Shown: positions 49,863 to 63,884 of the stretch, piece after piece
Layout of the letters: each line of letters starts with the position of its first letter
How positions within the stretch are numbered: position 1 is the first letter of the stretch
DNA from: Bacillota bacterium
GTDB lineage: Bacteria; Bacillota; JAAYKD01
Assembly (NCBI GenBank): GCA_963666425.2
Contig: OY762825.2
Span: forward strand, 384,001-448,000
Length of the DNA stretch: 64,000 bases
Direction of reading: 5' to 3'
Notes under the pieces: model-generated
Databases searched by the model: none
What the model was told of the DNA's origin: nothing
What the model saw: the letters and a program-made list of their open reading frames with translations, nothing else
Position numbers and translations under genes: made by a program

Positions 49863-49928
49863 TTATGAAGTTAGACCTATTTTCTCTGTGCTTTTGTGAG
49901 CGCACAGTTCCGTCACTTGAAGCGATTT

Positions 49929-51287
49929 TTAGCGCCGCATCTCCATGGCATAAAAGCAGCCGAAACCGGGTTCGACCTTGATCTGTCGGCTTTGGCTGAT
50001 CAGCTGACCGCGCAGATAGGTAGCATCAATCCGACCGCGAAACTCTCTGCCATCAAAAGGAGTGTGTTTGTTGAGATAATGCATCCGCTCTGCCTGGCAG
50101 AGCCAATTTTGTCTTAAATCAATCAGATTGAAATCCGCGTCGAAACCGATTTCCAAAGCGCCTTTACGGCCATAAAGGCCAAAACGGCGAGCTGGATTTT
50201 CAGACATCATCCGCACGACTGCGGGAAGCGGCAAATGGCGCTGTATGACACCTTCATCCAAAATGACCGGCAACATCGTCTCCAGACCGGTAACCCCTTC
50301 CGCGGCAGATGTGAAACGTTCCATAGCAACTACTTTTTGCTCGAAGGGATGCGGTGAATGATCGGAGACAATCATATCCACCTGACCTTCCAGAACACAG
50401 CGCCAGAGTTCCTGCCGCATGGCATCGCTGCGCGGTGGCGGATCGCATTTGGCGACTCCGCCCAGCCGGAAAAAATCGTCCTCTGTCAAGCCCAAATACT
50501 GCGGGCAAGTTTCCACCGTGATATCTAAACCCGCAGTTTGAGCGGCATGCACGGCACGAACCCCTTCCGGTACACTGCAATGAGCAATGTGTCCCTTGGC
50601 TCCGGGAGCCTGGCGCAGCAGATAAATATAGCGCAGAACCGCCTCGGTCTCACTGTAGGGCGGATGACTATCGATAAACGCCTGCGCATCCCGTTGACCG
50701 CTGGCATTGAATTGGTCGACCAAAACCTGAATCAGCGTATCGTTTTCCGCATGAGCACAGCTTAAGCCACCAAACTCCGCCAGACGGCGCATGCCGGCTA
50801 AGAGAATGCCGTCGTTGGTGCTGGGATAATTCGAGCAACGGCACATAAAGCTCTTAAACGCGCCGCCGCCCAGTTGGGCAATTGCTGCCATCTCATCTAA
50901 AGCGCCGGGAACCAAACCTCCCCAAAGGCCAAAATCGACCAGAAAATCCGCCTCCGCTGCCGCTTTTTTGGCTAAAAAAGCCTGCGGTGTCACGGTAATC
51001 GGCACAGAGAGAGGCTGTTCCAGCACCGTCGTCACACCGCCGGCGGCCGCGGCAGCAGAAACGCAAGCGTATGTTTCCCGCTCCGGCGTGCCATAACCGC
51101 CATGCACATGCGGATCGATCACGCCGGGCATAACAAAGCGATTGGCTGCATCCAAAGTTTCTTTGGCAGGAAAATTGCTGCCGGGTGCCGTGACAGCGGC
51201 AATTTTACCATCCTGTACATAGAGTTCGCCACTAAAAACCCGCTGGCTATTGACAATTTGCGCATTCATCACCTTTAAATCAAACAT
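49929..51287 (-). CDS. Cyclic amidohydrolase (allantoinase/dihydroorotase family)
   Basis: PGVIDPHVH, AAAGGVTT, FKSFM, HAEN, HIAH, ETCPQYL and SDHSP motifs. Real start is MFDLK after GGAGGAG; the ORF-track extension only translates the repeats. Confidence 0.85.
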   Translation of the reverse strand: MFDLKVMNAQIVNSQRVFSGELYVQDGKIAAVTAPGSNFPAKETLDAANRFVMPGVIDPHVHGGYGTPERETYACVSAAAAAGGVTTVLEQPLSVPITVTPQAFLAKKAAAEADFLVDFGLWGGLVPGALDEMAAIAQLGGGAFKSFMCRCSNYPSTNDGILLAGMRRLAEFGGLSCAHAENDTLIQVLVDQFNASGQRDAQAFIDSHPPYSETEAVLRYIYLLRQAPGAKGHIAHCSVPEGVRAVHAAQTAGLDITVETCPQYLGLTEDDFFRLGGVAKCDPPPRSDAMRQELWRCVLEGQVDMIVSDHSPHPFEQKVVAMERFTSAAEGVTGLETMLPVILDEGVIQRHLPLPAVVRMMSENPARRFGLYGRKGALEIGFDADFNLIDLRQNWLCQAERMHYLNKHTPFDGREFRGRIDATYLRGQLISQSRQIKVEPGFGCFYAMEMRR

Positions 51288-51299
51288 ACTTCTCCTCCA

Positions 51300-51361
51300 T
51301 GTTCCAAGGGGACGGGGGTGTTGGCACAACTTTGTGCCAGGGGGACGGGGGTGTTGGCTCA
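51300..51361 (+). repeat. REP-like repeat copies 1 and 2 (tandem)
   Basis: TGTTCCAAGGGGACGGGGGTGTTGGCACA (51300-51328), ACTT, TGTGCCAGGGGGACGGGGGTGTTGGCTCA (51333-51361). Confidence 0.95.
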
Positions 51362-52096
51362 CGACTCTTCGACTACTCTCCTCGATATCCCAGTAATTCT
51401 GGCTATTTGTCTGATAGAAAAATTACTTTTGGCTTTAATATTTCTAAGGATTCCGTCTCTGCTTGCTTTTGCAAAACCTTGAATTTCATCGATGTTATTC
51501 AAATGAGCAATTTTACACATTGCTTCTCTTGCTTCTAAATCGTTAAATTTGTTACTGGCAAGGTATTCTAAACAATTATCTTGATTGAGCTCATTATGAT
51601 AAGCAAGAAACTGATCTTTGGCCATCATACTGAACGCAAGGCTGACATCAACTATTTTTTGCTTCGAAAAATAGTCATTATAGCTGCTCCATTGATAATC
51701 GGAAACGTCTGCAACAATTCCCGCTTTCACCGGATTCTGATGAATGTAACGGATCACAGTCAATAAGTAGTGCATATTTTCAATGACCTCACTTTTAAAG
51801 CGATCCTGATACAAATGACCACATCTCTGATACTTTAAATTATACCAATGCACATAGCTTGCGCATATCTTGCGCATTGAGATGCCTAAATTATCATCCT
51901 TCATTAATAGATGAATATGGTTGCTCATTAAGCAATATCCAAGAAGTTCAAATTCGCGTTGCTCTTGATACAAAGCAAGTGTTTGCATAAACCTATCTTT
52001 GTCTTCGTCATCTTCAAAAATATCTTGATGATTAATACCACGAATCATAATATGATAGATCCCACTTTTACTTTTCTTTCTTGCTGTTCTTGGCAT
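51359..52096 (-). mobile_element. REP-associated tyrosine transposase (RAYT; IS200-like HUH Y1) with C-terminal HTH
   Basis: MPRTAR...YHIMIRG, YCLMSNHIHLL (HUH), LYQDRFKS, YIHQNPVKAG (catalytic Tyr) and YQWSSY motifs; flanked by inverted REP copies. Confidence 0.9.
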
Positions 52097-52203
52097 TTTT
52101 ATTCACCTCAATTGCTGAGCCAGAAAAACGGGGATTAAAAACACACTCTGTTGATATACACATATTTTAACTGTTTTTATTATCTTTTACTCCGTTTAAA
52201 AAC

Positions 52204-52232
52204 AGTATACTCTATCATATTTCTTGTGTCAA
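52204..52232 (-). promoter_or_regulatory. SigmaA promoter of the RAYT gene
   Basis: TTGACA-17 bp-TATACT. Confidence 0.75.
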
Positions 52233-52251
52233 TATCCTCGTTTCCTGATTC

Positions 52252-53118
52252 TTAAATCTTGTGCCAACACCCCCGTCCCCCTGGAACAATAGGAATCCAG
52301 AGTTCTATTTTGTTAGGTTGCAAACCATAAATTTCTATGGTATCCTGCGGTTCCAACTCATACCCTGAGCCCGGCAGCCACACGCCGTAAAACAGGCGAT
52401 ATGTTTCATTCAGTGGCCGCTTCTTTTCATCATGTACTATTTTAGCGTAGATAGCTGCTGGTATTTTTCTAATGACCAGATCTTCAGCATTCTGATTCCT
52501 ATCAATAATTTCCACAGCAAACAAATACTTAAAATCATCGTAATTGGTGATATTTGGAGCATATTCGCATATACCATACACAACATCAGTATTCGCAGCT
52601 GCTATATCTTTTTTTCGTTCTAGAAATTCAGCCCAATACTCCTCAATCGCAGATGAACCGGGTTTTACGATCCTTTCCAAACCCATCACCGAAAATTCAT
52701 TTCTCACAGCGATTTGCAGTTCAAAATCAAGTAAACGATCCGCTTTCTTTTGCCATTCTCTGATAAGATCGATCTTGTCAAACAAAACTGCATTCTTTCG
52801 TTGCTTTCTGAATCGACCTGGTGAAATTCCATATTCCCGGATAAATGCCCTGGTAAATACCTCCTGCGAATCAAAACCAAAATCACATCCGATGTCGATG
52901 ATCCTTTTTTCTGTCGTGCAAATTTCATATGCCGCATTGCTGATTCTTCTTTTTCGAATATATTCACCAATCGACATGCCAACCATGGCATCAAAAATTC
53001 TATAAAAATGCGTTTTTGAATAATAGGTCCGGCAGATTACTTCATCACAATCAATAACATCCTGTAAATGCTCTTCGATATAGTTGATAGAATCTTGCAT
53101 TCGCTCATAATAATTCAT
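52252..53118 (-). CDS. AraC-family regulator with GyrI-like effector domain
   Basis: YIEEHL, EYIRKRR and FDSQEVFTRAF...SPGRFR motifs; GyrI-like C-terminus whose last codons are encoded by a REP copy. Confidence 0.9.
   Translation of the reverse strand: MNYYERMQDSINYIEEHLQDVIDCDEVICRTYYSKTHFYRIFDAMVGMSIGEYIRKRRISNAAYEICTTEKRIIDIGCDFGFDSQEVFTRAFIREYGISPGRFRKQRKNAVLFDKIDLIREWQKKADRLLDFELQIAVRNEFSVMGLERIVKPGSSAIEEYWAEFLERKKDIAAANTDVVYGICEYAPNITNYDDFKYLFAVEIIDRNQNAEDLVIRKIPAAIYAKIVHDEKKRPLNETYRLFYGVWLPGSGYELEPQDTIEIYGLQPNKIELWIPIVPGGRGCWHKI
52260..52288 (-). repeat. REP-like repeat copy 3
   Basis: TGTGCCAACACCCCCGTCCCCCTGGAACA. Confidence 0.95.
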
Positions 53119-53142
53119 ATCTGCCTCTTATAAACCTACTTT

Positions 53143-54261
53143 TTATGGACGACTTAGGTGATCCCAGAACCCATCGGGTGCTTCCTCGTCCAATAACTCA
53201 GCAGTAAATGTTTCTATCTGATTGGATGAAGCAAATTGGAACTTCCTCCATTGATTGATACTGGGAGTACCAAAACAAATATCTGCTTCTGCCTTGGTTG
53301 CATTGAAAATAATCGACCAAATTGTTCCCATTCCATTTCCATAGTAGTGACACCCGAGACCGTATGGCATAGGGTCAGAAAGGATTTTCTTAAGTTCGTT
53401 GAATCCGCGTTTACTCGCTGCATCCTGAAACCATTCTTTTAAAAATTCATAGCGAATCACGGAATGACGCGGTGTATATAATTTCATTTTGCTGATCGTT
53501 TCAGAGTTATAATGATTTGTCGCAAACAAATATTCTTCTTTGGCATCGCTTCCGGCCAGGATAATTTCATGAGTAGAAGCAGCGGCTTCAATTAAAGCCG
53601 CGTTTCCCTTTTTATCAATCACCATGATGTTCCTAAAGTCTGCAAACTTGATTTTCTGAAACAAGCTCACCGCTTCCTGAACCGTTTTACACTCATTCAG
53701 CAACGCTCTTACCACAACGGGAAACACAAATCCATCTTCAGAGTAATTTGGATGAATCGCGCCGGCGGAAGTGGTTACACATAATCCCTCCTCGTTCATC
53801 CCGTCAAAGCGGCCAAAAACCTGACAGCCAAACCCAATCTGTCGATATTGTCCCTGAATAGAAGATTCTATCAGAATCGGTTCCTCGCTTAAGCCGAAGT
53901 CGTAATTGCGCGCCAGATAGCAATTACCATCATCGCTCACAGAGGGTGTTAACGCTATTTGACTGCAATTACCCTGATTTAACTGTAGATACGCATAATA
54001 TAACGTCATATCCTCAGCCTTTGCACCAACAGCATCGGCAAATCCACAGATTTCCTCATTAATCCCCGGACAAAACCGATCATACAACTCTCTTGTTTTC
54101 TGAAATTGCCCATAGGTAAGCCGATTTCCTCCCATGAACGGCGTTGTCAGCTTTTTAATCAATGCTTGATCTCGTTTTAAAAATCTGCCGAGCTGTTGTC
54201 CTGCCTCATAAGGACTTCCTTCAATAACGCAGTGCCTAAATACCATTTTTCTGCTTTCCAT
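53143..54261 (-). CDS. C45-family Ntn-hydrolase (acyl-CoA:6-APA acyltransferase-like peptidase)
   Basis: GN|CSQ nucleophile site; ARNYD, DGMNEEGL and TNHY motifs. Confidence 0.8.
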   Translation of the reverse strand: MESRKMVFRHCVIEGSPYEAGQQLGRFLKRDQALIKKLTTPFMGGNRLTYGQFQKTRELYDRFCPGINEEICGFADAVGAKAEDMTLYYAYLQLNQGNCSQIALTPSVSDDGNCYLARNYDFGLSEEPILIESSIQGQYRQIGFGCQVFGRFDGMNEEGLCVTTSAGAIHPNYSEDGFVFPVVVRALLNECKTVQEAVSLFQKIKFADFRNIMVIDKKGNAALIEAAASTHEIILAGSDAKEEYLFATNHYNSETISKMKLYTPRHSVIRYEFLKEWFQDAASKRGFNELKKILSDPMPYGLGCHYYGNGMGTIWSIIFNATKAEADICFGTPSINQWRKFQFASSNQIETFTAELLDEEAPDGFWDHLSRP

Positions 54262-54463
54262 TTATGAACCTCCCGTGCTATTTTCAGTGTATTTATCAAT
54301 AACTGACAGTATAGCAAATTGATAAATGGAAAGTTTGATGTTTTTTAACATGCGAGCTCAAAAAAGTTGGAGTAAATTTCTAGTTAAAGGGACGGAGGGT
54401 AGCAAGATCCTCTGATTAAACACATGTTTACTTTTAGTATACTGCTTTTCTCTATTGAAAAGC

Positions 54464-54492
54464 AGTATACTCTCTCCTATTTTCCATGTCAA
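54464..54492 (-). promoter_or_regulatory. SigmaA-type promoter homologous to the RAYT promoter
   Basis: TTGACA-17 bp-TATACT; a perfect 15-bp inverted repeat (54436-54471) overlaps the -10. Confidence 0.7.
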
Positions 54493-54517
54493 TCTTCCAT
54501 TTTTTTGGATTTAATCT

Positions 54518-54559
54518 TGTGCCAACACCCCCGTCCCCCTGGCACGTCCCCCTGGCACA
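54518..54559 (-). repeat. REP-like repeat copy 4 with a 13-bp tandem duplication of its end
   Basis: TGTGCCAACACCCCC-GTCCCCCTGGCAC-GTCCCCCTGGCAC-A. Confidence 0.95.
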
Positions 54560-54560
54560 T

Positions 54561-55172
54561 TTATTTTGTGAGCCTTCCAGTATAAGTGAAGCTGTCATCC
54601 GAGGTAATCTGAATTGAGTTGCTGGCAATTTCCGTTTCATCCTTATATGCTTTCAGCAATAGGGTGCATTTGCGAGCCATTGGTTCGTGATTTTCTGCCT
54701 GCATCGGCGTCCAATAAACCGTTTCGCCGGATTTTATTTCTAATTCCTTTCCTTGCGCCAGCACCCGCCCATCCGGTGACGTCCAGAGCAGCAGTTCTCC
54801 CTCACTCACTGTCAACAAAATGTAATCCGCTTGCGTGTATAATATTTTCAATGGGAAACCAGGCACACTGCTCATCGTCACTTGATATTTCCCGAGAGGA
54901 AACTCGACAGCGCGCTCGACAGAATAACTGCTGCCGTCGGCGGCATAGGCGGTAATCATGAATCCATTGGCTGTTCGATTTCCTAAATTTTGCAGCAATG
55001 GGATGCCGAAGATCATCACTGCTGCCAAGGCGCAGGTAACCGCAAGGGCAGATATTGCTTTCTTAAATGGGAAAAGCTGCTTTCGGCTGCTTTGTTTGGC
55101 ATGCCGGATGATTTCCTTTTTCTGTTCATCCCCCAGTTTTATTTCATTCATGCCGTTAATGTATTGATTCAT
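54561..55172 (-). CDS. Putative anti-sigma factor (single TM)
   Basis: Short cytoplasmic N-terminus, one TM helix and an extracellular domain; overlaps the end of the ECF sigma gene. Confidence 0.6.
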   Translation of the reverse strand: MNQYINGMNEIKLGDEQKKEIIRHAKQSSRKQLFPFKKAISALAVTCALAAVMIFGIPLLQNLGNRTANGFMITAYAADGSSYSVERAVEFPLGKYQVTMSSVPGFPLKILYTQADYILLTVSEGELLLWTSPDGRVLAQGKELEIKSGETVYWTPMQAENHEPMARKCTLLLKAYKDETEIASNSIQITSDDSFTYTGRLTK

Positions 55173-55665
55173 TTGCTGCACCTCCGTTTATTTCCATTTT
55201 GAGCAATTCTCTTGCTCTTCTCAACTGAGTGCGAACCGTTGCCTCGTTCCTGTTTAATAATTGCGCTATTTCTGCAGTACTGTAGTTCTCAAAATAGTGT
55301 AAATAAATCACACTTCGATACTTGATGGGGAGAGCCAAAACCAGAGCGACTACTTCCCTGTTTTCTTTCTCTTGGATCGGTAAAACTGTTGTTTTCTCAT
55401 CCATTGGCAAGAAGAAATTCCTCCAACCACCCCTTAGGACATCTTTACAGGCGTTGATTGTCACCCGGATTATCCAAGCTTTTTCGTGTTCCAAATCTGT
55501 AAATACTCTGTTCTGTTCAAAAATCTTCATGAAGACATTTTGACAGACATCCTGTGCATCAGGCAGATTTCTCAGATAGGTTAAAGCAAGGCGCAATACC
55601 ATATCAGAATACCTTTGAACTAAATCCGAAATGTAATCGTCCGTACGCGACGATTCAATTTCCAT
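55156..55665 (-). CDS. ECF RNA polymerase sigma factor
   Basis: DAQDVCQNVF and AWIIRVTINACKD (region 2); LPIKYRSVIYLHYFENYSTAEIA...TVRTQLRRAR (region 4). Confidence 0.9.
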   Translation of the reverse strand: MEIESSRTDDYISDLVQRYSDMVLRLALTYLRNLPDAQDVCQNVFMKIFEQNRVFTDLEHEKAWIIRVTINACKDVLRGGWRNFFLPMDEKTTVLPIQEKENREVVALVLALPIKYRSVIYLHYFENYSTAEIAQLLNRNEATVRTQLRRARELLKMEINGGAANESIH

Positions 55666-55811
55666 TCTGATCACGCTCCTCTCACCCATAACACGATTCA
55701 AAACAAGAAAATGTTTCACTCGGTAAATTTAATTTTTTATCTTTGTTACTTCAGCTTATCATCTATATTTTGCTTTTCAACCTGTTTTTTCCTGCAATCT
55801 GCACATTTTCT

Positions 55812-55840
55812 TGTGCCAAGGGGACGGGGGTGTTGGCACA
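55812..55840 (+). repeat. REP-like repeat copy 5
   Basis: TGTGCCAAGGGGACGGGGGTGTTGGCACA, with perfect 8-bp arms. Confidence 0.95.
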
Positions 55841-55843
55841 TGC

Positions 55844-55891
55844 TTGACAAACGAGCGGGCTGTCTTTATAATATGCCCCATAGGGGTATAT
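55844..55891 (+). promoter_or_regulatory. SigmaA promoter with CsoR-type operator
   Basis: TTGACA (55844)-17 bp-TATAAT (55867), followed by ATATGCCCCATAGGGGTATAT, a C/G-tract pseudo-palindrome typical of CsoR operators. Confidence 0.85.
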
Positions 55892-55929
55892 GGCATCTTG
55901 TTCTATTTTTGGAAAGGCGGCGCTCTCTA

Positions 55930-57825
55930 ATGGGATTTATGAGAAAATTACGGGAAGAAGAATCGTTTCGCACGCTGTGTTTGACAATTTTGTCGGGAAT
56001 CTTTCTCTTGGCAAGCTTTTTTGGCTGGCTTTCGGATCTGCCTTTTGATCCGGCCTGGATCGCCATTCTGATCAGCGGAATTCCAATTGTATTTGGCGCT
56101 GTGCGGGGATTGGTCAAAGAATTTGATGTGACGGCCGATGTGCTGGTTGCAATTGCTCTGATTGCCGCTGTTTGGATTGGAGAATACTTTGCTGCCGGCG
56201 AAGTTGCTTTCATTATGCAATTAGGCAAGGTCCTTGAAGACGTCACTGCCGGAAAATCACATCAAAGCCTGCAGGCGCTGATCAATCTGACTCCGCAGAA
56301 AGCCTGTATCCGCACCGCAGAAGGTGAAAAAATCATTCTGGCCTCCGCAGTAAAAAGCGGCGACCTCATTTTAATCCGTCCCGGTGAATCCATCCCGGTG
56401 GACGGCAAGATTATTCACGGTAATACCGCCATCAATCAATCGGTGATGACCGGGGAATCCGTGCCGGTTGACCGCACAATCGGCGACGAAGTCTACCAAG
56501 GAACGATCAACCAGCAAGGTGCGATTGAAATTGAAGCCACTCAGGTTGGCGAGGATTCTTCACTGAAAAAGATGATTCATTTAGTAGAGGAAGCGGAAGA
56601 AAACAAAGCACCCATTGTGCGTATCGCGGATAAATGGGCACGCATTCTTGTCCCGGTTGCTCTGGGCTGCTCTCTGCTGATTTGGCTGCTCACCAAAGAT
56701 ATTTATCGCGCCGTGACGGCGCTCGTTGTCTTCTGTCCCTGTTCCCTGATCCTTGCCACTCCCACCGCGATGATGGCTGCCATCGGCAATGCAACCAAAA
56801 ATGGCATTCTAATCAAGTCCGGCGCAGCGGTGGAAGCCGTGGCAAAACTCGATACGCTGGTGATGGATAAAACCGGCACCTTAACCTACGGTAAACTGCA
56901 AGTGGAAGAGCTTCAGATTCTTGACTCGAAGCTGGAGCGCAATCGTTTTCTCGCTCTGATCGCCAGTGCAGAGAAATTCTCCGAGCATCCCTTGGCAAAA
57001 GCCATCCTAAACTATGCACAAAGTCAGGGTATCGTGGCAAAAGATCCCGGCAGTTTTGAAATGCAAGCAGGCAAAGGCGTTACCGCAATGGTAGATGGGC
57101 ACAGAATTTCACTTGGCGAAAAAATCATTGGCTCAGAACAGATCCAAAATCATCCTGTGGCAGCCCGGATGATTGAACAAATGCAAAAACAGGGTAAAAC
57201 TGTTTTACCCGTTCTCTGTGATGGAATAATCATCGGTATCATCTCCATCGCCGATACGCTCCGCAAAGAAGCGAAAAGCACCCTTGCCGAACTGAAACGC
57301 AGCGGCATTACGCGCATTGTTATGCTGACCGGCGATCATCAGGCTGTAGCCGACTTCATTGGAACTGCAGCTGGTGTCACCGATCTCTTTGCTTCCCAGT
57401 TACCGGAAGATAAAGTAAATTCCATTCGGCGCCTAACGCAGCAGGGGTATTCGGTCGGCATGGTCGGTGACGGCATTAATGATGCTCCTGCGCTTGCCAC
57501 CGCTTCTGTCGGCATTGTCATGGGAGCCATCGGTTCCGATGTAGCCTTGGAAGCCGCCGATATCGCTCTGATGGGCGACGACATCAGCAAACTGCCCTTT
57601 TTGATTCGGATCTGCCGCAAAACAAAAAGCCGGATCGTTTTCAACATCGTGATTTCCATGATTCTCAACTTTGGCGCCATCATTCTGGCAGGCTTTGGCT
57701 GGCTGACTCCTGTCACTGCGGCATTGGTTCATAATTTTGGCTCGGTCTTCGTCGTCATAAATTCCGCTTTACTGCTAACTTATCGGGAACCGGCTGCGCT
57801 CACTTCACCAATAACTACCGACTAA
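55930..57825 (+). CDS. P1B-type heavy-metal ATPase without N-terminal metal-binding domain
   Basis: TGES, CPC, DKTGT, SEHP, TGD and GDGINDAP motifs; start moved to MGFMRK downstream of the promoter. Confidence 0.92.
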   Translation: MGFMRKLREEESFRTLCLTILSGIFLLASFFGWLSDLPFDPAWIAILISGIPIVFGAVRGLVKEFDVTADVLVAIALIAAVWIGEYFAAGEVAFIMQLGKVLEDVTAGKSHQSLQALINLTPQKACIRTAEGEKIILASAVKSGDLILIRPGESIPVDGKIIHGNTAINQSVMTGESVPVDRTIGDEVYQGTINQQGAIEIEATQVGEDSSLKKMIHLVEEAEENKAPIVRIADKWARILVPVALGCSLLIWLLTKDIYRAVTALVVFCPCSLILATPTAMMAAIGNATKNGILIKSGAAVEAVAKLDTLVMDKTGTLTYGKLQVEELQILDSKLERNRFLALIASAEKFSEHPLAKAILNYAQSQGIVAKDPGSFEMQAGKGVTAMVDGHRISLGEKIIGSEQIQNHPVAARMIEQMQKQGKTVLPVLCDGIIIGIISIADTLRKEAKSTLAELKRSGITRIVMLTGDHQAVADFIGTAAGVTDLFASQLPEDKVNSIRRLTQQGYSVGMVGDGINDAPALATASVGIVMGAIGSDVALEAADIALMGDDISKLPFLIRICRKTKSRIVFNIVISMILNFGAIILAGFGWLTPVTAALVHNFGSVFVVINSALLLTYREPAALTSPITTD

Positions 57826-57870
57826 ACACCGGTTCATCCCACAATCAGCGAAAAATGAGGAGGTCATATT

Positions 57871-58152
57871 ATGTCCGCACATCCCCATCACGATACCGAG
57901 AAACTCTGCCAACGGCTCAACCGAGTCGAAGGGCAGTTAGGCGGGATTCGCAAGATGCTTGAAAATGATAAACCCTGCGATGAAATTATCATCCAATTGA
58001 ATGCCGCTAAAGCAGCTTTACAGAAGGTCAGTCAGATTATTTTGGAAGATCATCTCGATCATTGTGTGATTGACGCGCTCCGCGATGGCAAAAGTGAAGT
58101 TCAGATTGATAGTTTAAAACGTGCGCTCAGCCAATATACCAAAATGGTCTAG
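57871..58152 (+). CDS. CsoR/RcnR-family metal-sensing repressor
   Basis: RLNRVEGQ, C...H-x3-C ligand set and N-terminal HPHH. Confidence 0.9.
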   Translation: MSAHPHHDTEKLCQRLNRVEGQLGGIRKMLENDKPCDEIIIQLNAAKAALQKVSQIILEDHLDHCVIDALRDGKSEVQIDSLKRALSQYTKMV

Positions 58153-58160
58153 TAAAAGCT

Positions 58161-58189
58161 TGTGCCAACACCCCCGTCCCCTTGGCACA
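58161..58189 (-). repeat. REP-like repeat copy 6
   Basis: TGTGCCAACACCCCCGTCCCCTTGGCACA, the exact reverse complement of copy 5. Confidence 0.95.
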
Positions 58190-58190
58190 C

Positions 58191-58230
58191 AAAAGCAGCA
58201 GGTCACATAAAAAAGTGACCTGCTGCCTTT
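58191..58230. terminator. Bidirectional intrinsic terminator
   Basis: AAAAGCAGCAGGTCAC-loop-GTGACCTGCTGCCTTTT between convergent genes. Confidence 0.8.
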
Positions 58231-58242
58231 TGTTACTGCATT

Positions 58243-59058
58243 CTAGTGTTCCGACACGAGTTGCCTTAACGCGTCAACCAGTTGATTCCATTCTGCGTAG
58301 GAAGATACCACACCGTCGCTGATGGCACCGAGCCGAAGCACCGCAAGCAGCCTTTCGGCGCAATTTTCCGGTTTGAGCTGGAAACGGTCGATCCACTCCA
58401 TTGTCCTTTTGCGGCTGGGGAAATAGACTCTGTTGAGCGAAAACAGCACTTGTAAAAAATGGTCAAGCGCCAAGTCCAAGGCAAAATGGTAGAAAAGCAG
58501 GTCTTTTCTGCTGACTGCGCGCAGCAGATCCTCACGATCGGCGAGCTGCTCCAAATGGTACTCCATTAACTTTTGCGCCAATGAATCGGGATAGCACGAC
58601 AATCTGTCTTTGATGCTGCCGAAGAAACCAGTTTTATCATAGAACACCTGTATCTCTTGCAGCATCGCACAGCGTCCGGTCGGGTAGTAATAATTATCCA
58701 ATCTTTCCAGGTATTCTCCCTGGAGAATGGCAGCAACTTCCCGGGCCGTCTCTGCTGTCGTGAAGTACATCAGCCATGTTTCCACCCCGTTGAGCAGCAC
58801 AAGATCGCCAACACCCCAATGGCCACCCTGAAAAACATTGCTTTGGACTGCCGGCAGCAGGCCGTTCGAGTGGTTGAAAATCGCTTGTCTATTCACCAAA
58901 TCAGGGATTTCTCTGCAATAAATGAATAGATCGATATCTCCCTCCCCTGCTGCGGGGATTGCTTTTTCGCTCCCGCTTCTGCCAATCGCCTCAACTACCT
59001 CAAAAGCTGAAAGCTGCTTCACAATCTCCTGCAGGAGTTGCTCTGTTGCAGGTATCAT
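58243..59058 (-). CDS. Nucleotidyltransferase-fold protein with DUF4037-like helical domain
   Basis: SGS...GDIDL pol-beta motif; LFSLNRVYFPSRK C-terminal motif. Confidence 0.65.
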   Translation of the reverse strand: MIPATEQLLQEIVKQLSAFEVVEAIGRSGSEKAIPAAGEGDIDLFIYCREIPDLVNRQAIFNHSNGLLPAVQSNVFQGGHWGVGDLVLLNGVETWLMYFTTAETAREVAAILQGEYLERLDNYYYPTGRCAMLQEIQVFYDKTGFFGSIKDRLSCYPDSLAQKLMEYHLEQLADREDLLRAVSRKDLLFYHFALDLALDHFLQVLFSLNRVYFPSRKRTMEWIDRFQLKPENCAERLLAVLRLGAISDGVVSSYAEWNQLVDALRQLVSEH

Positions 59059-59288
59059 TTTATTAAATCTCCCCTCTCCCTAAATGCATTAAATGTGCTA
59101 AGAAGTCAACGCGTTATCCACCAAAGGATCTGACATGCCAATGATGAACGGAAAGCTAAGTTAACAGACAAAACAAAACAACCCATTACCGTTATCGGTG
59201 TGGTAGAATAAAAGCAGAATCGAAATTCGCAGCCAATAGTTGCCGGTTCAGGAAGCCCGCGTTTTGATAAATATGCAGGGAATTTGGA

Positions 59289-59972
59289 TTGAAGGTGATC
59301 CTATTGAAATCATTAATTCATGAATTTTCCGGCTTTTCACCGGAAATGCTTGATTTCCTTTTTGAACTTCGGTTTACCAACACAATTGAAAAACAAGCGG
59401 ACCATCTTGTTCGGTATAAAACACTGATTTCCGAACCGCTGGCTCTGCTTTATGGAGCCCTGCTTACTACGGTTTCTGAGTTGAATTTACCGGTTGAAAC
59501 AAAACCTGCCCGCTGTATCTCATCACCTTATACCGATCGGCGTTTTTCACCGAATGTACCGCTAAAAGAATATTTCTACATTCGTTTTAAGCAATACAGC
59601 AAAAGCACCGATATCCCCGGCCTTTATTTTGACCTGGGATTAGAACATTACGGTTATGGCATCCGTATTTATAAGCAAACAGCTTCTAATATGGCTCAGC
59701 TTCGGGAAAAAATACTCGAAGCAACTGACCAATACTCTGTAATTTTGGATGAAATCTACGCTGCCGGTTTTGTAGTAAGTGGTGAAAAATATAAAAAAGA
59801 TCACTATCCAAGCTTACACGACTGCACTGCAAAGGAAATTCTTAACCGCCGTGGTTTTTATATTGAAAAAGCTGTACCAGTGGGCGGAAATGTGTTTTCC
59901 CCTGCTCTTGCTGATGAATTGTCGGAAGCTTTTAGACTACTCAGGAAAATGTTTCTGCTATTGGGAGAATAG
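59289..59972 (+). CDS. DUF2461-like conserved hypothetical protein
   Basis: FSGFSPEMLDFL, ISSPYTDRRFS...PLKEY and GLYFD resemble DUF2461 family motifs. Confidence 0.55.
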   Translation: MKVILLKSLIHEFSGFSPEMLDFLFELRFTNTIEKQADHLVRYKTLISEPLALLYGALLTTVSELNLPVETKPARCISSPYTDRRFSPNVPLKEYFYIRFKQYSKSTDIPGLYFDLGLEHYGYGIRIYKQTASNMAQLREKILEATDQYSVILDEIYAAGFVVSGEKYKKDHYPSLHDCTAKEILNRRGFYIEKAVPVGGNVFSPALADELSEAFRLLRKMFLLLGE

Positions 59973-60094
59973 CCTTTTGCCAAAGCAATTTCGCTTGTGT
60001 TGGCAAAAGGGTAATAGAACAGGCTTGAAAAATAGATTTTCAACTTTTCAGGTTAATTATACCCTATTTTGAGCTGGTTTTAAAGATGATTTTA

Positions 60095-60156
60095 TGTACC
60101 AAGGGGACGGGGGTGTTGGCACAAGTTTGTGCCAACACCCCCGTCCCCTTGGTACA
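60095..60156. repeat. REP copies 7 and 8 as an inverted doublet (62-bp palindrome)
   Basis: TGTACCAAGGGGACGGGGGTGTTGGCACA-AGTT-TGTGCCAACACCCCCGTCCCCTTGGTACA. Confidence 0.97.
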
Positions 60157-60157
60157 G

Positions 60158-60823
60158 TTACTTAACTCCCCGAATCAAGAGCCAGAACATAAAGGGAAAC
60201 TCGGCCATCATAGCAGGCAGCAATAACGCCGTCTCCAGCGTACTGCTGGGAATGAGAAAATGGATGATCACAGCAAGCAGGCCGCAGACAGTCTCGATTG
60301 CAAACAAGATGCCGAATACTTTGGGCAGAAAACCAGACTGATAAATCAAAATACCCAGCGGCAGCACCCAGAGGGCAAAGAAAACCTGACCGATCATATA
60401 ACCGTGCTCATAAATCCGGAAAGACAAGATAGCCAGCGACTGCAGCTGATTGCCGGAAAAACCGCTCCAGGCACTGCCTCCGCTCAGAATCAGCAGCGGC
60501 GCATATTCATTAAGAAGATTGATCAGAAGCAGCGTGCTTCCCGCTGCAGCGAACAATACCATCACGGCAGCCAAATTCCGATTGACCGAAGCCAGCAGCT
60601 GATATAACGCGATTGCCGTGAACAAATAGCACACCGACATCAGAAGATCGCTGACAATCCCCGCCCGAAAGAGAAAGCTCTGCGATATAATTCTGGCTGC
60701 GGTCTCCGCCGCATTGGCGGGAACAAAAAGTTTTTGCCGGAAGAAAACCTCAGCAAAAAGGCCGAACACAACCATTAACAGAAAGAAGAATCCCGACAGC
60801 CGCGCTGTTTTATTCGCATTCAT
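60158..60823 (-). CDS. DUF4386-family membrane protein
   Basis: ARLSGFFFL, FRAGIVSDL, FFALWVLPLG...SGFLPK and WLLIRG motifs. Confidence 0.75.
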   Translation of the reverse strand: MNANKTARLSGFFFLLMVVFGLFAEVFFRQKLFVPANAAETAARIISQSFLFRAGIVSDLLMSVCYLFTAIALYQLLASVNRNLAAVMVLFAAAGSTLLLINLLNEYAPLLILSGGSAWSGFSGNQLQSLAILSFRIYEHGYMIGQVFFALWVLPLGILIYQSGFLPKVFGILFAIETVCGLLAVIIHFLIPSSTLETALLLPAMMAEFPFMFWLLIRGVK

Positions 60824-60838
60824 GAATTACAACCCTCT

Positions 60839-61624
60839 CTAATATTCTATTTTGTGATCCATCAGCCAGGCGGTTCCGCGTAAGCTCCCAAACAAAACCA
60901 GAACACTGACCAGGACAGAACTTAAGGAATCTTCACCCAGCAAGTTGAATCGGATAATGGGGAATTGCAGCATCAATTCATTCAAGAATCCCAGTATTGT
61001 GATCACCGTAACGAACATGAGCATTCCGATCAAAACAGCGGCTTTACTTTTATGAGAAAACATCTTAGAAAAGGCAATGCAGAAATAAACAATCATATAA
61101 AGCGAAGCAAAACAAAAAATGATGTAGAGAATATCCAACAAGAGCAAACCGGGAGAGGCAAAAGCTTTCTGCAAGGCGCTACGGAAAATATCGAGCACTT
61201 TTTTGTCAAACCGGCTGCTGATTAAAATAAAAGCGGTCACCGAGACTGCGCTGCAGCTTAAACCAACGATTGCGCTGGTCAAGACGGTTGCCAATTTTGC
61301 TGCAAGCTTTTTCCAGGAAGCAATCGGGGTCAGCAGTTCCAACACGGCTTGCTTGCCGGATAAATCCTCGTTGAAACGTGTAATCCCCTCAAAAAAAGGA
61401 AACAAACCAATCAAAATGGCTGCCAGGAAAAAAAGCAGCATGGCAATCACGGCAGGTGTTCCCATGTTTTCACATTCATAATTACTTTCCGTGAATACTC
61501 TCGTCATATTGACATTCCAGAAGAAGGTCCTCGCTACAAACAGCAATACAGTCTGGAGCAAAACATATCCCAGCAAAATGTTCCTGGAAGCTTTCCATCT
61601 TTTCACAAATTCAAATTTCAGCAA
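60839..61624 (-). CDS. ABC-2-type transporter permease
   Basis: Six TM helices; LLTPIASWKKLAAKL; follows the ABC ATPase. Confidence 0.7.
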   Translation of the reverse strand: MLKFEFVKRWKASRNILLGYVLLQTVLLFVARTFFWNVNMTRVFTESNYECENMGTPAVIAMLLFFLAAILIGLFPFFEGITRFNEDLSGKQAVLELLTPIASWKKLAAKLATVLTSAIVGLSCSAVSVTAFILISSRFDKKVLDIFRSALQKAFASPGLLLLDILYIIFCFASLYMIVYFCIAFSKMFSHKSKAAVLIGMLMFVTVITILGFLNELMLQFPIIRFNLLGEDSLSSVLVSVLVLFGSLRGTAWLMDHKIEY

Positions 61625-62323
61625 TCAGTCAACGCAGTAAACCTCCCTGTAAACTTCATCTAGTGTCATTTTTTTCACATTGCGAATTTCTTCCGTATTG
61701 CCGGCCAGGATAATTTTCCCGTCCTGCTGGAAATATGCCTCATCCAGTATGGATTCAATCTCCTGAATATGATGACTGGTCAGCAGGATGGAGCTTTCAT
61801 AATTGAAACCTTTTAAGATCGCGCCGAGAATCTGTTCCCGGGCAATCGGATCTACCCCATTGAGCGGTTCGTCCAACACAATCAACTTGGCCTCTCTGGA
61901 AAGAGTCAGAGTTAAAGACAATTTCTCCAACATGCCTTTGGATAAATCTTTGACAACCATTTCATTCTTCAGCTTCATGAACTCGAGCAGAGTATCAAAC
62001 TTTTCCGCATTGAAATCCTTAAAAAAGTCAGTATAGAATTTTTTTGCCTCTGCGATCCTCATCCAGGGATAGAGAAAATCGGTATCCGGCAAATAAGCAA
62101 CCATTGCTTTTGTCTTTACCCCTACCGGTTCGCCGCAGATTTGCAGGCTGCCGGCGCTTGGTCTGCTGAGTCCTGCCAACAGTTTCAGAAAAGTTGTTTT
62201 ACCGCTGCCATTCGGCCCCAAAAGGCCAACTATTTTACCACTCTCAACGATCATATCCATGCCGTTCAGCACCTGTTTATGCAGGAATTTTTTATAAACT
62301 GCCTGCGCTTCCAGAATTCTCAT
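61625..62323 (-). CDS. ABC transporter ATPase (YtrB-like)
   Basis: GPNGSGKT, LSKGM, LDEP and TSH motifs. Confidence 0.9.
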   Translation of the reverse strand: MRILEAQAVYKKFLHKQVLNGMDMIVESGKIVGLLGPNGSGKTTFLKLLAGLSRPSAGSLQICGEPVGVKTKAMVAYLPDTDFLYPWMRIAEAKKFYTDFFKDFNAEKFDTLLEFMKLKNEMVVKDLSKGMLEKLSLTLTLSREAKLIVLDEPLNGVDPIAREQILGAILKGFNYESSILLTSHHIQEIESILDEAYFQQDGKIILAGNTEEIRNVKKMTLDEVYREVYCVD

Positions 62324-62324
62324 T

Positions 62325-62687
62325 TTATCGCTCCTCCAAAATCTTCTTGAGATAGCTTACAATTTCCTGATTGGATAAACCCAATTCCAGCATCTGATCG
62401 GCAAAGCGCTGTGCATAACCTTGCGCCTGCGTTGCCTTGAGCTGATTGACCAATTCAGCGCCCTCCGCCACAAAGGTACCAATCCCACGCTGAGAATAAG
62501 TGATACCCTCTCTTTCCAATTCCTGAAAGACACGCTGAACCGTATTGGGATTGACTTTGAATGTTTCCGAAAATTCTCTGACCGACGGCATTTTTTCTCC
62601 CCCTTTGAGTTTACCGGATATGATGTCAGCTTTTACTTTTTGAATGATTTGTAAATAAATCGGCATGTTCTCTTCATACTTGATCAT
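62325..62687 (-). CDS. GntR-family (YtrA subfamily) repressor
   Basis: PIYLQI, MPSVRE, VNPNTVQR and RGIGTFV motifs; short C-terminal domain. Confidence 0.9.
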   Translation of the reverse strand: MIKYEENMPIYLQIIQKVKADIISGKLKGGEKMPSVREFSETFKVNPNTVQRVFQELEREGITYSQRGIGTFVAEGAELVNQLKATQAQGYAQRFADQMLELGLSNQEIVSYLKKILEER

Positions 62688-62712
62688 AGATCCACCCCCC
62701 AAGCTATTTCAC

Positions 62713-62753
62713 TAGTGTGCTATCATATTAATACACTAACGATGCTTTGTCAA
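62713..62753 (-). promoter_or_regulatory. YtrA-type operator overlapping the promoter
   Basis: TAGTGT-N14-ACACTA palindrome (62713-62738); TTGACA at 62748-62753 on the minus strand. Confidence 0.7.
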
Positions 62754-62795
62754 TACCCTTTTTTAAAAAAATTGAAATATTCTTAATTTCAGCAC

Positions 62796-62861
62796 AGTGA
62801 GCCAAGGGGACGGGGGTGTTGGCACAAGTTTGTGCCAACACCCCCGTCCCCTTGGCTCACT
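62796..62861. repeat. REP copies 9 and 10 as an inverted doublet (66-bp palindrome)
   Basis: AGTGAGCCAAGGGGACGGGGGTGTTGGCACA-AGTT-TGTGCCAACACCCCCGTCCCCTTGGCTCACT. Confidence 0.97.
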
Positions 62862-63333
62862 TCACGAGCTCAATTGCTTCTTTACCGGTAATCTGTTCAA
62901 TGTCAATGGCAATTAAGTACGATTGACTGCAGCCGTCCACTTCTTTTTGCTTGGCTGCCTCTGGTTGATCGCCTGCGTATTTTTCCACAAAGGCCCGGAA
63001 CGCCTGCCGCTGTTCGTCGCCTTCGGCAATTCTGGCGCGGCCAAAAGCAATCACGCTGCGGAAATAAGTTGTGTATTTTTCACTGACAATTTTGTCTTCA
63101 TCCGTCACCGCAAAAGACACCTTTGGATTTTTGAGGATGGCATCTATTTTATGGCCGGACTTGGCCGAGTGAAAATAGATTTTCTGATTATAATAAACAT
63201 AACTGAGCGGCACCGCATAGGGGTAATCATCATCCCCTAAACACGCCAGAACTCCACAGGTGCATCTGCTCATTACCGCTGCCGTATCCTGCGGTGATAA
63301 CAATTGTTTTACTCTGCGCATGGCTCGAAACAT
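62857..63333 (-). CDS. Pyridoxamine 5'-phosphate oxidase-like flavin-binding protein (Nim-like)
   Basis: MFRAMRR, YPYAVPLSY, IYFHSAKSGHK, FRSVIAFG and ITGKE motifs. Confidence 0.8.
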   Translation of the reverse strand: MFRAMRRVKQLLSPQDTAAVMSRCTCGVLACLGDDDYPYAVPLSYVYYNQKIYFHSAKSGHKIDAILKNPKVSFAVTDEDKIVSEKYTTYFRSVIAFGRARIAEGDEQRQAFRAFVEKYAGDQPEAAKQKEVDGCSQSYLIAIDIEQITGKEAIELVK

Positions 63334-63355
63334 CTTATTTTTCTCCCTTTCATTT

Positions 63356-63883: not shown

Positions 63884-63884
63884 C

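Follow-up and report, generated by a model that had tools for sequence, protein, structure and literature searches.

Whether a run of gene modules parted by a short repeat, next to the gene for a RAYT enzyme, is an integron-like system was the question raised by a preliminary description of this locus, in which the repeats were proposed to act as recombination joints for the capture and shuffling of cargo. The window, that is the whole stretch of 64,000 nucleotides analysed, comes from genome G000, whose assembly includes a 2.9-Mb contig (C1) and the strain contigs C4 and C8, and it was compared with G001, a sister-species genome of the same genus (a MAG of 74 contigs; 2.1-Mb assembly).

All ten 29-nt copies of the repeat (REP) were recovered with at most three mismatches (Table 1), the chance expectation in the window being 0.00 (100 dinucleotide-preserving shuffles). 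As had been stated, no copy lies before position 51300, and nhmmer adds none there. The strands of the ten copies are, in order, -,-,+,+,-,+,-,+,-,+. The strict alternation described from the second copy onward fails for the intact copies (52260 and 54518 are both +) and is regained only if the degenerate remnant at 54380-54400 is counted as a minus copy.

Table 1. Features of the window around the REP copies (positions in the window).
Feature	Position	Strand	Remarks
Allantoinase-like amidohydrolase	49929..51287	-	left of RAYT; identity from source names
REP, arm TTGGAACA	51300..51328	-	directly upstream of RBS and ATG of allantoinase-like gene
REP, TGAGCC variant	51333..51361	-	first three bases are the TGA stop of the RAYT gene
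RAYT, TIRYT-type Y1 HUH transposase, 245 aa	51359..52096	-	H60-I-H62, Y117xxxNP, putative C-terminal HTH-like tail
Promoter-like TTGACA-17-TATACT	52204..52232	-	faces RAYT gene; 27 nt from core end of REP 52260
REP	52260..52288	+	right border of conserved RAYT block; AraC ORF reads through
Module: AraC/GyrI-like regulator 52252-53118, C45 acyl-CoA:6-APA acyltransferase-like hydrolase 53143-54261	52252..54261	-	no G001 ortholog
Degenerate G-form REP remnant	54380..54400	-	in 5' leader of C45 operon; by eye
Promoter-like TTGACA-17-TATACT	54464..54492	-	in flank of ~150 nt
REP with 13-nt tandem stutter of its 3' part	54518..54559	+	
Module: ECF sigma 55156-55719, overlapping 206-aa ORF	54561..55719	-	no G001 ortholog
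REP, perfect consensus	55812..55840	-	left border of conserved ATPase block
Module: 12/12 consensus promoter 55844-55872, P1B-type ATPase (to 57825), CsoR 57871-58152	55844..58152	+	
REP, perfect consensus	58161..58189	+	right border of conserved ATPase block
Module: DUF4037 nucleotidyltransferase-like 58243-59058 (-), DUF2461 59289-59972 (+)	58243..59972	.	no G001 ortholog
Inverted REP doublet, REPIN-like (copies at 60095 and 60128)	60095..60156	.	4-nt spacer, both arms TTGGTACA; 29-bp ssDNA hairpin, -40.4 kcal/mol
Module: DUF4386 60158-60823, no-family 261-aa ORF 60839-61624, ABC ATPase 61625-62323, GntR 62325-62702	60158..62702	-	no G001 ortholog
Inverted REP doublet (copies at 62798 and 62831)	62798..62859	.	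arms TTGGCTCA; -44.2 kcal/mol
Pyridox_ox_2 (Nim-like) 62857-63393, Imm5-like 63356-63940	62857..63940	-	in G001 at 88% amino-acid identity

The enzyme encoded beside the first copies matches Pfam Y1_Tnp (PF01797; E 1e-11) and TnpA-REP (PDB 4ER8; E 3e-5), the latter alignment covering both the HUH and the Y motif, and carries the class 2 Y motif Y---NP as Y117-I-H-Q-N-P. Its C-terminal tail gave only weak Pfam HTH matches (HTH_11 at E 0.015; three others at E 0.08-0.09), and a tail motif, S-I/T-R-Q-I/L-A-R-x-T-G-x-S/T-R/K, is present in all five homologs compared. The gene is single-copy, with one copy on C1 plus a 99% strain variant on C8, and its G001 ortholog is 86% identical. It is bracketed by inverted REPs, and both genomes have the same layout of two C-form copies past the RAYT stop and one inverted copy upstream; a 48%-identical relative (L014) has this layout too, and relatives of the class have flanking inverted repeats that carry GGGGACGG or GGGGACAG. 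Compared with the motif GGGG[AT][CG]A[CG], GGGGACGG of the window REP, found also in three class relatives, agrees at 7/8 positions and GGGGACAG of L014 at 8/8. Homologous proteins number more than 5,700, most of them at about 50% identity; where a source name is given, it is from Bacillota. An IS200/IS605 insertion sequence was rejected, the gene being single-copy and its flanking repeats inverted. Judged by its sequence, the enzyme is an intact Y1 HUH transposase, encoded once in the genome and probably of the TIRYT class (RAYT group 1, TnpA_Y1 subclass 2.1), and the 29-mer is its cognate REP/TIR family. RAYT group 1 of Bertels et al. 2017 is said to be this same class. The TIRYT or TIRtron (Di Nocera, De Gregorio & Rocco 2013, PMC3733652) is equivalent to TnpA_Y1 subclass 2.1 (Quentin et al. 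2018, PMC6006769).

The copies in the window do not form a special array but are one cluster within a family of 105 copies in the G000 genome (at most four mismatches). Core matches numbered 102 in G000, 27 in G001 and none in the 39 other relatives, so that among the 41 genomes searched the repeat was found only in one genus. The 105 copies vary only within the 3' arm, at positions 22, 26, 27 and 29; the exact 21-nt 5' part, TGTGCCAACACCCCCGTCCCC, the complement of which carries the clade's GGGGACGG motif, is common to 90 of them. The functional part of the 29-mer would be this 21-nt 5' core, the 8-nt 3' arm being free to vary. The described architecture of 8-bp arms and a 13-nt loop holds for the consensus only, as 8/8 complementary arms occur in 18/105 copies genome-wide. 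Singlets, tandems and inverted doublets are all represented, the doublets forming REPIN-like perfect hairpins. The 16 doublets are all -+ (+- was not seen), 11 have identical arms and their spacers are mostly 4 nt. As ssDNA the doublets have folding energies between -40 and -44 kcal/mol (z between -14 and -15); the singlet hairpin is weak (-6.7 kcal/mol, z -2.2). The GTAG (GT[AG]G) tetranucleotide is absent from the hairpin foot in the 29-mer and its flanks, and singlet 5' flanks tend to CAAnTC, a motif judged by eye.

Nearly all REP copies lie in accessory DNA around the replication terminus. Of 65 REP sites, 42 are wholly within crude intergenic gaps. They are placed at the 3' ends of transcription units, the arm facing the stop codon and the core facing the next promoter, and at 26/65 sites (5.9 expected) a stop codon is found in the REP itself or no more than 5 nt away. 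Stutters of 13 nt in the arm vary between strains that are 98% identical; the one at 54518..54559 is missing from the strain-variant contig C8 and from run X10.

That the repeats part complete transcription units was borne out. The modules of the window contain one to four genes, some on one strand and some on the other, with consensus-like promoters of their own, and Pfam upheld the contents described as Y1_Tnp, AraC/GyrI plus C45, P-type ATPase plus CsoR, DUF4037 plus DUF2461 and Pyridox_ox_2. It likewise upheld two modules that each include an ORF without a family: GntR, ABC ATPase and DUF4386 were recognised together with one such ORF, and the ECF sigma gene is accompanied by an ORF that matches no Pfam family and is taken to be a putative anti-sigma factor. 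The ~150-nt flank containing the promoter-like element at 54464..54492 can be aligned with the flanks of the RAYT promoter in both G000 and G001 (three sequences, column identity 82% on average). Module GC ranges from 38 to 54%; G000-specific DNA has 44.0% and shared DNA 48.7%, values that would fit a foreign origin of the cargo.

Alignment with G001 delimits three conserved blocks in the window (51297-52288, 55833-58189 and 62830-63871), and five of their six ends fall at REP edges. The differences in module content against the sister species lie at REPs to the base, in agreement with the proposal. The ATPase/CsoR module is kept in G001 at 92-93% amino-acid identity, the REP at its left border having the opposite loop orientation there. 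The right half of the doublet at 62798..62859, next to the conserved Nim-like block, has an orthologous REP in G001, and the TGAGCC variant of REP 51333 recurs at the orthologous G001 site. The slot from the REP after CsoR to the REP before the Nim-like gene is occupied by two modules in G000 and by a single hemerythrin-domain gene in G001. G001 lacks the allantoinase-like gene and has, directly against the REP, only a remnant with weak similarity to the 3' end region of that gene; the pattern suggests a deletion or insertion, one end of which is at the REP.

Across the genome, only 1/65 REP sites has G001-collinear flanks, compared with 861/1486 control gaps (Fisher p 2e-22, on sites that are clustered and not independent), and 54/65 sites lie in or at G000-specific segments, which make up 28% of C1. 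At 22/65 sites a flank is conserved to within 50 nt of the REP, and 21 of the 25 flank distances are 0-6 nt; a G001 REP occurs at the matching spot in 17 of these 22. The conserved flank was the core side in 7/8 scorable sites, four of the eight being from the window locus. At 15 orthologous sites with flanks 83-97% identical, mismatches numbered 2/315 in the core and 22/120 in the arm. At the strain level, two differences between C4 and C1 (1.19 kb and 4.06 kb) both end 2 nt from one and the same REP, and on C8 an IS5/IS1182-like element begins 6 bp past REP 58161. Events with one end at a REP truncate a gene and leave a new stop codon right at the REP. Independent REP-edge events are few, about ten, and some G001 neighbourhoods are not visible because a REP terminates at least six of the contigs. 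The preliminary description had named repeats at similar density in conserved intergenic DNA, with unchanged gene order in relatives, as the mark of ordinary REP colonisation. This is not what was found, since a single site in 65 is collinear, homology stops 0-6 nt from REP edges and one slot holds differing cargo.

The proposal of recombination joints was supported in part. REPs do lie at module borders, but several breakpoints have a REP at one end only, and 200 of the 206 indels of at least 200 bp between the two species have no REP at their border, the others having one at both ends (three) or at one end (three more). Likewise, 118 of 140 G000-specific segments of at least 1.5 kb are without a REP, including most of the first 49.7 kb of the window. 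Capture or shuffling of cargo was not borne out, as no module of the window was found at a second location in either the G000 or the sister genome. Near the window array there is no recombinase other than the RAYT.

The anatomy of the repeat, its distribution and its base-exact breakpoints are features observed in these genomes. The reading to which we give somewhat better than an even chance is that REPs are initiating breakpoints for accessory-module turnover, with catalysis by the RAYT; we infer that events begin at the REP and that they are carried out by the RAYT, not by hairpin processing or RecA. The REP sites would predate the split of the genus's two known species, since when DNA beside them, mostly on the arm side, would have been gained, lost or replaced in module-sized blocks. 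Breaks or nicks at the REP, most plausibly made by the RAYT nicking ssDNA near the core/arm boundary, could be rejoined in two ways: joining to another REP would produce deletion, insertion or replacement from REP to REP, and joining to unrelated DNA would produce the one-ended events.

A possible, though clearly less probable, explanation is that the repeats mark these borders passively: selfish REPs would insert at gene 3' ends and survive where they are harmless, in accessory DNA near the terminus, while modules turn over by unrelated routes, e.g. homologous recombination in flanking genes after DNA uptake, and REPs and viable indels would share borders simply by both ending at gene boundaries. 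REP ends and module ends may indeed partly coincide, because both lie at gene ends, and the excess of stop codons in or within 5 nt of REPs fits this account, such contact being known for other REPs, with GTAG REPs abutting or supplying stop codons in the part of PMC3733652 that treats them. The REP-free majority of indels, the common REP-free accessory DNA and the want of a relocated module in G000 or G001 also agree with it. Against it, homology ends closer to the REP than a preference for gene ends would give, one-ended events cut genes short with the stop codon newly made at the REP, and the core is under strong purifying constraint at orthologous sites, which is unexpected for neutral junk. 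Passive insertion also predicts presence/absence polymorphism of REPs in otherwise collinear DNA, and none was found at 65 G000 and 20 G001 sites.

The integron-like platform itself we consider unlikely. It would require site-specific single-strand exchange by the RAYT between REPs at the core/arm boundary, with core-promoter-genes-arm units excised as one-REP circles and reinserted at other REPs to assemble stress and resistance arrays. Each REP does connect two units, with its arm at the 3' end of the first and its core at the promoter of the second, and arms differ where the adjoining DNA differs, being identical in one clear conserved case, REP 62831 by the Nim-like gene (a small sample). 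A G000-specific array of 86 kb is also suggestive: it contains 71 ORFs, nearly all on one strand, 18 same-orientation REPs at stop codons with one to five or more genes per REP interval, and cargo such as integron cassettes typically carry (10 GNATs along with ANT-, APH- and Arr-like genes). A duplicated 1.2-kb two-gene unit ends 4 bp past a REP, and tyrosine recombinases (PF00589) gave only two matches in the whole genome (C1:2137385 and C1:1501245), neither near a REP cluster. However, most variable modules of the window lie between inverted rather than direct REPs, which are ill-suited to a same-strand Y1 mechanism, the one-ended events do not fit clean cassette exchange, and the modules have regulators and promoters of their own. 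No identical cassette was seen in two contexts in the G000 genome, and no circle or excision junction among the Logan contigs of four runs, which break at every REP and leave joint sides of at most 30 nt. Biochemistry of subclass 2.1 enzymes does not appear in the available text of PMC6006769 and PMC3733652. A local integron was rejected, no integrase being nearby, the modules having their own promoters and only 6/206 indels touching a REP. The boldest form of the platform, in which the transposase and its 29-nt site, in a lineage almost devoid of tyrosine recombinases, are a single-strand counterpart of the integron that cuts at the core/arm boundary, exchanges 3' DNA between REPs or joins incoming ssDNA, captures, loses and replaces whole units at fixed sites, and built both the window array and the 86-kb GNAT/ANT/APH/Arr array, is likewise unlikely.

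It is most improbable that the G001 differences are artefacts of a short-read MAG assembler joining or breaking contigs at the repeat: although REPs do end G001 contigs and interrupt the Logan contigs, the G001 locus lies inside a 158-kb contig, where the slot is filled by a real gene of another kind (hemerythrin), the whole 2.1-Mb assembly lacks orthologs of the missing modules, C1 is a single contig of 2.9 Mb, and like REP-edge differences separate C1 from C4 and C8 of one assembly.

REP/RAYT systems are commonly pictured as inherited vertically and resident in the intergenic DNA of the core genome. Here an enzyme of subclass 2.1 type has a clear and abundant cognate repeat, the sites of which are kept across two species while the adjoining DNA turns over, giving them a concrete and testable role as breakpoints for accessory-gene turnover. 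The place to look for cleavage is the core/arm boundary, where the 13-nt stutters arise, and if the enzyme were the agent, this would be an integrase-independent route of gene acquisition.

In large chromosomal integron arrays the attC sites were first described as repeats, and the integron recombination site acts as folded ssDNA. The comparison with attC is an analogy drawn from the pattern, not from a demonstrated mechanism. As in integrons, a repeat directly follows the stop codon of each unit, slot content differs between relatives, and small accessory genes, with GNATs and drug-modifying enzyme families well represented, form a long array in a single orientation. Unlike in integrons, neither IntI nor another tyrosine recombinase lies near the array, each unit has its own promoters and regulators, window repeats face either way, neither circles nor permutations of cassettes were seen, and the 86-kb array, though co-oriented, has a variable number of genes per interval. 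The IMU and NFM2-MITE composites, as outlined in Delihas 2011 (PMC3184786), resemble the present units in that resistance-type cargo is enclosed by two copies of a short noncoding repeat, open to mobilisation in trans; the composites are made of MITEs that have TIRs and target-site duplications and are served by DDE transposases, whereas the enzyme here is an HUH Y1 enzyme and no target duplication was seen.

The REPIN-RAYT system of Pseudomonas and E. coli, so far as it is set out in the available text of Bertels & Rainey 2011 (PMC3116915; see also PDB 4ER8), shares with the present one a single-copy domesticated HUH transposase flanked by its own repeats, singlets and inverted doublets with long hairpins, repeats downstream of genes, and vertical persistence at orthologous sites. 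The present family differs in its enzyme, which is of another subclass, in having no 5' GTAG tag, in conserving the 5' arm and "loop" instead of the singlet hairpin, and in being nearly absent from core intergenic regions (1/65) and concentrated at the borders of accessory DNA. The TIRYT or TnpA_Y1 subclass 2.1 type, as characterised in the accessible parts of PMC3733652 and PMC6006769, resembles the present system in its long Y1 protein, which has the HUH and Y---NP motifs and here a putative HTH-like tail at the C-terminus, in a gene bracketed by inverted repeats, those seen here carrying a motif close to GGGG[AT][CG]A[CG] (GGGGACGG here, GGGGACAG in L014), and in a low gene copy number. The word "Firmicutes" is absent from the main text of both papers, and neither, in those parts, links repeats to the borders of accessory modules. 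TIRs form moderately abundant families with dimers and clusters in some species, according to the portion of PMC3733652 concerned with them. Quentin et al. (PMC6006769), in the sections available, did not find REP-like structures adjoining subclass 2.1 genes; the gene described here, unlike those, is accompanied by a palindromic 29-mer in ~105 copies, with 16 REPIN-like doublets.

All ten copies of the 29-nt repeat (REP, a 21-nt 5' core followed by an 8-nt 3' arm) reported in the preliminary description were recovered from the window at up to 3 mismatches, with none expected from 100 shuffles, and, as had also been reported, no match precedes position 51300. An nhmmer profile search of the window added solely a 13-nt partial copy at 54545. 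The strict alternation of orientation proposed earlier holds if a degenerate remnant near 54389 is counted (in the G-form, one of the two strand readings, the other being the C-form) but fails for the intact copies alone. ORFs and Pfam matches agreed, with small corrections, with the modules listed between the REPs (AraC + C45, sigma + anti-sigma, P1B-ATPase + CsoR, DUF4037 + DUF2461, GntR-ABC-DUF4386 and Nim-like). The gene to the left of RAYT, the Y1 HUH transposase gene of the array, is allantoinase-like by homolog search; its nearest homologs (88%, 78% and 70% identical) come from metagenome contigs. The best four promoter-like sites between 51200 and 63000 are located 4-45 nt from a REP and directed away from it, two of them within homologous flanks that carry both REP and promoter. 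A GC-rich palindrome, ATATGCCCCATAGGGGTATAT, conserved in the sister species, immediately follows the 12/12 consensus promoter that precedes the P1B-ATPase and CsoR genes and is probably the CsoR operator. Rfam at gathering thresholds returned no family in 49000-64000, and a plasmid search with the whole array as query returned no match.

Coordinates of the features discussed (window positions unless a contig is named)
Feature	Position	Strand
REP	51300	-
REP	51333	-
REP	52260	+
REP	54518	+
REP	55812	-
REP	58161	+
REP	60095	-
REP	60128	+
REP	62798	-
REP	62831	+
RAYT ORF	51359-52096	
MraW/RsmH-like methyltransferase gene	48602-49651	
REP-plus-promoter flank	52140-52288	
REP-plus-promoter flank	54398-54546	
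Palindrome ATATGCCCCATAGGGGTATAT	55872-55895	
Block shared with sister species	51297-52288	
Block shared with sister species	55833-58189	
Block shared with sister species	62830-63871	
Stutter GTCCCCYTGGNNC	54545-54559	
Stutter GTCCCCYTGGNNC	C1:1316	
Stutter GTCCCCYTGGNNC	C1:798217	
Stutter GTCCCCYTGGNNC	C8:8559	
Stutter GTCCCCYTGGNNC	C17:13943	
Stutter GTCCCCYTGGNNC	several REPs of sister species	
Second repeat family	C1:481500-484100 (L165:13500-16100); C17	
REP doublet beside RNA-like gene	C1:2429582-2429643	
86-kb region (loci L157-L161, outside the window)	C1:2,814,600-2,900,500	

The locus was compared with all 74 contigs (2.10 Mb) of the sister species (G001), where it reads MraW-like gene, about 260 bp, two REPs, RAYT, REP, ATPase-CsoR, REP, hemerythrin gene, REP cluster, Nim-like and Imm5-like genes. 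The allantoinase, AraC, C45, sigma, anti-sigma, DUF4037, DUF2461 and GntR-ABC-DUF4386 genes have no ortholog anywhere in G001. REP edges form five of the six ends of the shared blocks, and at the first junction the 8-nt arm is all that the source assembly (G000) and G001 have in common. G001 lacks the allantoinase gene and retains, directly against the REP, a weak trace of the gene's 3' end region. The loop orientation of the REP beside the ATPase promoter is opposite in the two species, as it is at position 463017 of the main contig (C1). In the family relatives G002-G005 the locus has only paralog-level ATPase matches (at most 41% identity), which yield no ancestral state. The MraW/RsmH-like methyltransferase gene of the window, the second of its kind, is solitary, with no division-cluster neighbour to its right; it shares 92% identity with the G001 ortholog and 37% with another copy, on contig C28 of G001.

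Genome-wide, the flanks of REP sites were collinear in G001 in 1 case out of 65, as against 861 of 1486 control intergenic gaps. The remaining sites had a single conserved flank (23), no conserved flank (38) or two that were conserved but not collinear (3). At 22 sites a flank was conserved up to 50 nt or less from the REP, the 25 flank distances being mostly 0-6 nt, and for 17 of the 22 G001 carries a REP at the same spot; in the reverse comparison, at least 12 of 20 G001 REP sites map onto G000 REP sites (hand count). No REP was simply present or absent within DNA otherwise collinear between the two genomes. Across 15 orthologous sites the core shows 2 mismatches in 315 positions and the arm 22 in 120, with flanks 83-97% identical, and the core side holds the conserved flank at 7 of 8 scorable sites. 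Among 206 collinear indels of at least 200 bp, a REP lies no more than 12 nt from a border in only 6 (in 3 of these, at both borders), and only 22 of 140 G000-specific segments of at least 1.5 kb hold or touch a REP, yet these contain 54 of the 65 sites. The first 49.7 kb of the window, free of REPs, is just 39% alignable to G001.

The G000 assembly (3.2 Mb, 47% GC), in which the window is C1 384001-448000, contains 105 REP copies at up to 4 mismatches, with another 18 matches (weak, variant or partial) from nhmmer. Of the 105 copies, 90 are identical over the 21-nt 5' part, variation being restricted to positions 22, 26, 27 and 29, and the arms are fully complementary in just 18. Matches to the 21-mer core number 102 in G000, 27 in G001 (the only other species in the genus) and 0 in the 39 other relatives searched. 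On C1, 86 copies are grouped into 65 sites, of which 46 are singlets, 16 are inverted doublets and 3 are same-strand tandems; all 16 doublets are oriented -+ and none +-, with spacers mostly of 4 nt and identical arms in 11. As single-stranded DNA the singlet folds weakly (-6.7 kcal/mol, z -2.2), and the doublet folds into a hairpin paired perfectly over 29-31 bp (-40 to -44 kcal/mol, z -14 to -15). REP clusters occupy C1 at 1-62, 435-484, 747-826, 2336-2346, 2429-2431 and 2818-2902 kb, and no copy occurs in 1.26-2.33 Mb. By cumulative GC skew the origin maps near 1.67 Mb and the terminus, around which the clusters lie, near 0.22 Mb. The C-form lies opposite the leading strand at 39 of 49 same-orientation sites and opposite the genes at 26 of 34 sites between co-directional genes; replication and transcription are inseparable as causes of this bias, since genes are co-oriented with replication. 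A stop codon falls inside the REP or within 5 nt of it at 26 of 65 sites (mean 5.9 and maximum 12 in 200 trials of random placement), and is faced by the arm end in 17 of 20 oriented cases; such contact has already been described for GTAG REPs (PMC3733652). Several REPs are followed by a tandem 13-nt stutter with the unit GTCCCCYTGGNNC, the 3' part of the REP, its presence at the same site varying between 98%-identical strains.

A second repeat family consists of tandemly arranged units, about 120-160 bp long, each with a hairpin GGGAACGGTCTTGACCGTTCC placed after a stop codon and C-rich CGTCCCC-like runs; its arrays close with a conserved segment of about 100 nt and a REP bearing a CTGGAACA arm, and two of them flank an AAA-ATPase-like gene (named by eye). 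At an edge of G000-specific DNA, one REP doublet abuts the 3' end of a gene that by eye resembles a tRNA or tmRNA gene; the same flank in G001 lacks the REP.

Six small contigs of the assembly (C2, C4, C6, C8, C16 and C17) are versions of C1 segments that are about 98% identical and differ structurally, and thus represent a second strain (stated contamination 6.85%); REP clusters are overlapped by four of these contigs. At a single REP, C1 differs from C4 by a gene that in C1 is truncated 2 nt from the arm, with a new stop codon, and by 4.06 kb found only in C1 on the core side, beginning 2 nt from the core. At C1 337789 an 11.7-kb difference begins at a REP edge and finishes 493 nt beyond a second REP, and elsewhere a duplicated two-gene unit of 1.2 kb ends 4 bp past a REP variant. 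C8 tracks the window to 6 nt beyond the REP at 58161 and continues into a DDE insertion sequence, which was rejected as a REP-specific element, being IS5/IS1182-like with other copies away from REPs; several DDE insertion sequences are present in G000 in 3-9 copies each. Logan contigs from four runs, examined over 48000-64000, stop at every REP, the sides of their joints measuring 21-30 nt, or 59 nt in one opposite-strand case, and are silent on circles and inversions, because joints this short cannot separate recombinants from repeat-induced joins.

G000-specific DNA has a GC content of 44.0%, shared DNA 48.7%, the window modules 38-54% and the RAYT gene 35%. An 86-kb region of C1 (40.6% GC) is missing from G001 save for a short conserved island near 2,875,500-2,878,000. 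Its 71 ORFs, nearly all on the + strand, include 10 GNAT acetyltransferases, ANT-, APH- and Arr-like genes, TetR regulators, and defence-like NTPases and helicases; its 18 REPs all occupy the - strand, and many of them lie 0-3 nt away from a stop codon. By eye, about nine of the 18 have a diverged core-side flank of about 70 nt in common. The tyrosine-recombinase family PF00589 has only two matches in the 3.2-Mb genome, neither near a REP cluster, despite 28% of C1 being specific relative to the sister species.

The best fit to these observations is that REPs are ancient, selectively maintained sites at which breaks or nicks would start the gain, loss or replacement of adjoining DNA. Ordinary REP colonisation of conserved gene order, set out in the preliminary description as the alternative, is at odds with the scarcity of collinear REP sites; the integron-like joints favoured there likewise remain hypothetical. 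As to the route, cruciform cleavage is disfavoured as the sole one because singlet hairpins are weak, and plain REP-by-REP homologous recombination likewise because some events have a REP at one end only. This leaves nicking by RAYT as the putative agent of REP-adjacent events, the most economical candidate; cleavage is predicted near C^GTCCCC, where the 13-nt stutter unit begins.

The RAYT product is a Y1_Tnp protein (Pfam) whose alignment with E. coli TnpA-REP (4ER8; E 3e-5) spans HIH and Y117xxxNP. The gene is unique on C1, a strain-variant copy (99% identical) being carried by C8. Two REPs lie downstream, the one at 51333 supplying the TGA stop codon with its first three bases, and one inverted REP lies upstream; G001 has the same layout. 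A 48%-identical homolog from a Bacillota MAG has an equal layout with a different 27-nt repeat, and flanking inverted repeats also accompany three class relatives; GGGGACGG or GGGGACAG is common to all of these repeats. A homolog search with RAYT found more than 5,700 proteins, about 250 aa long; among the 120 listed, identity is mostly about 50% and those with source names are Bacillota, the G001 protein being labelled as that of a Negativicutes bacterium. A metagenome scan with RAYT recovered 3 distant relatives (28-40% identity) and no further version of the locus, and a scan of genome contigs recovered a single relative, the 48%-identical homolog (L014). Among the top-ranked results of one library, a literature search on RAYT/REP repeats gave no link to cassette-like arrays or to Bacillota. 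The RAYT tail gives weak HTH matches only, yet has a conserved SIRQIARxTGISR-like motif. Long Y1 proteins of this kind are assigned to the TIRYT class, characterised by a C-terminal HTH-like tail and GGGG[AT][CG]A[CG] repeats and equivalent to subclass 2.1 and to RAYT group 1 (PMC3733652, PMC6006769). Quentin et al. describe subclass 2.1 as being without REP-like structures (PMC6006769), and Di Nocera et al. describe TIR families as moderately abundant in a few species (PMC3733652).
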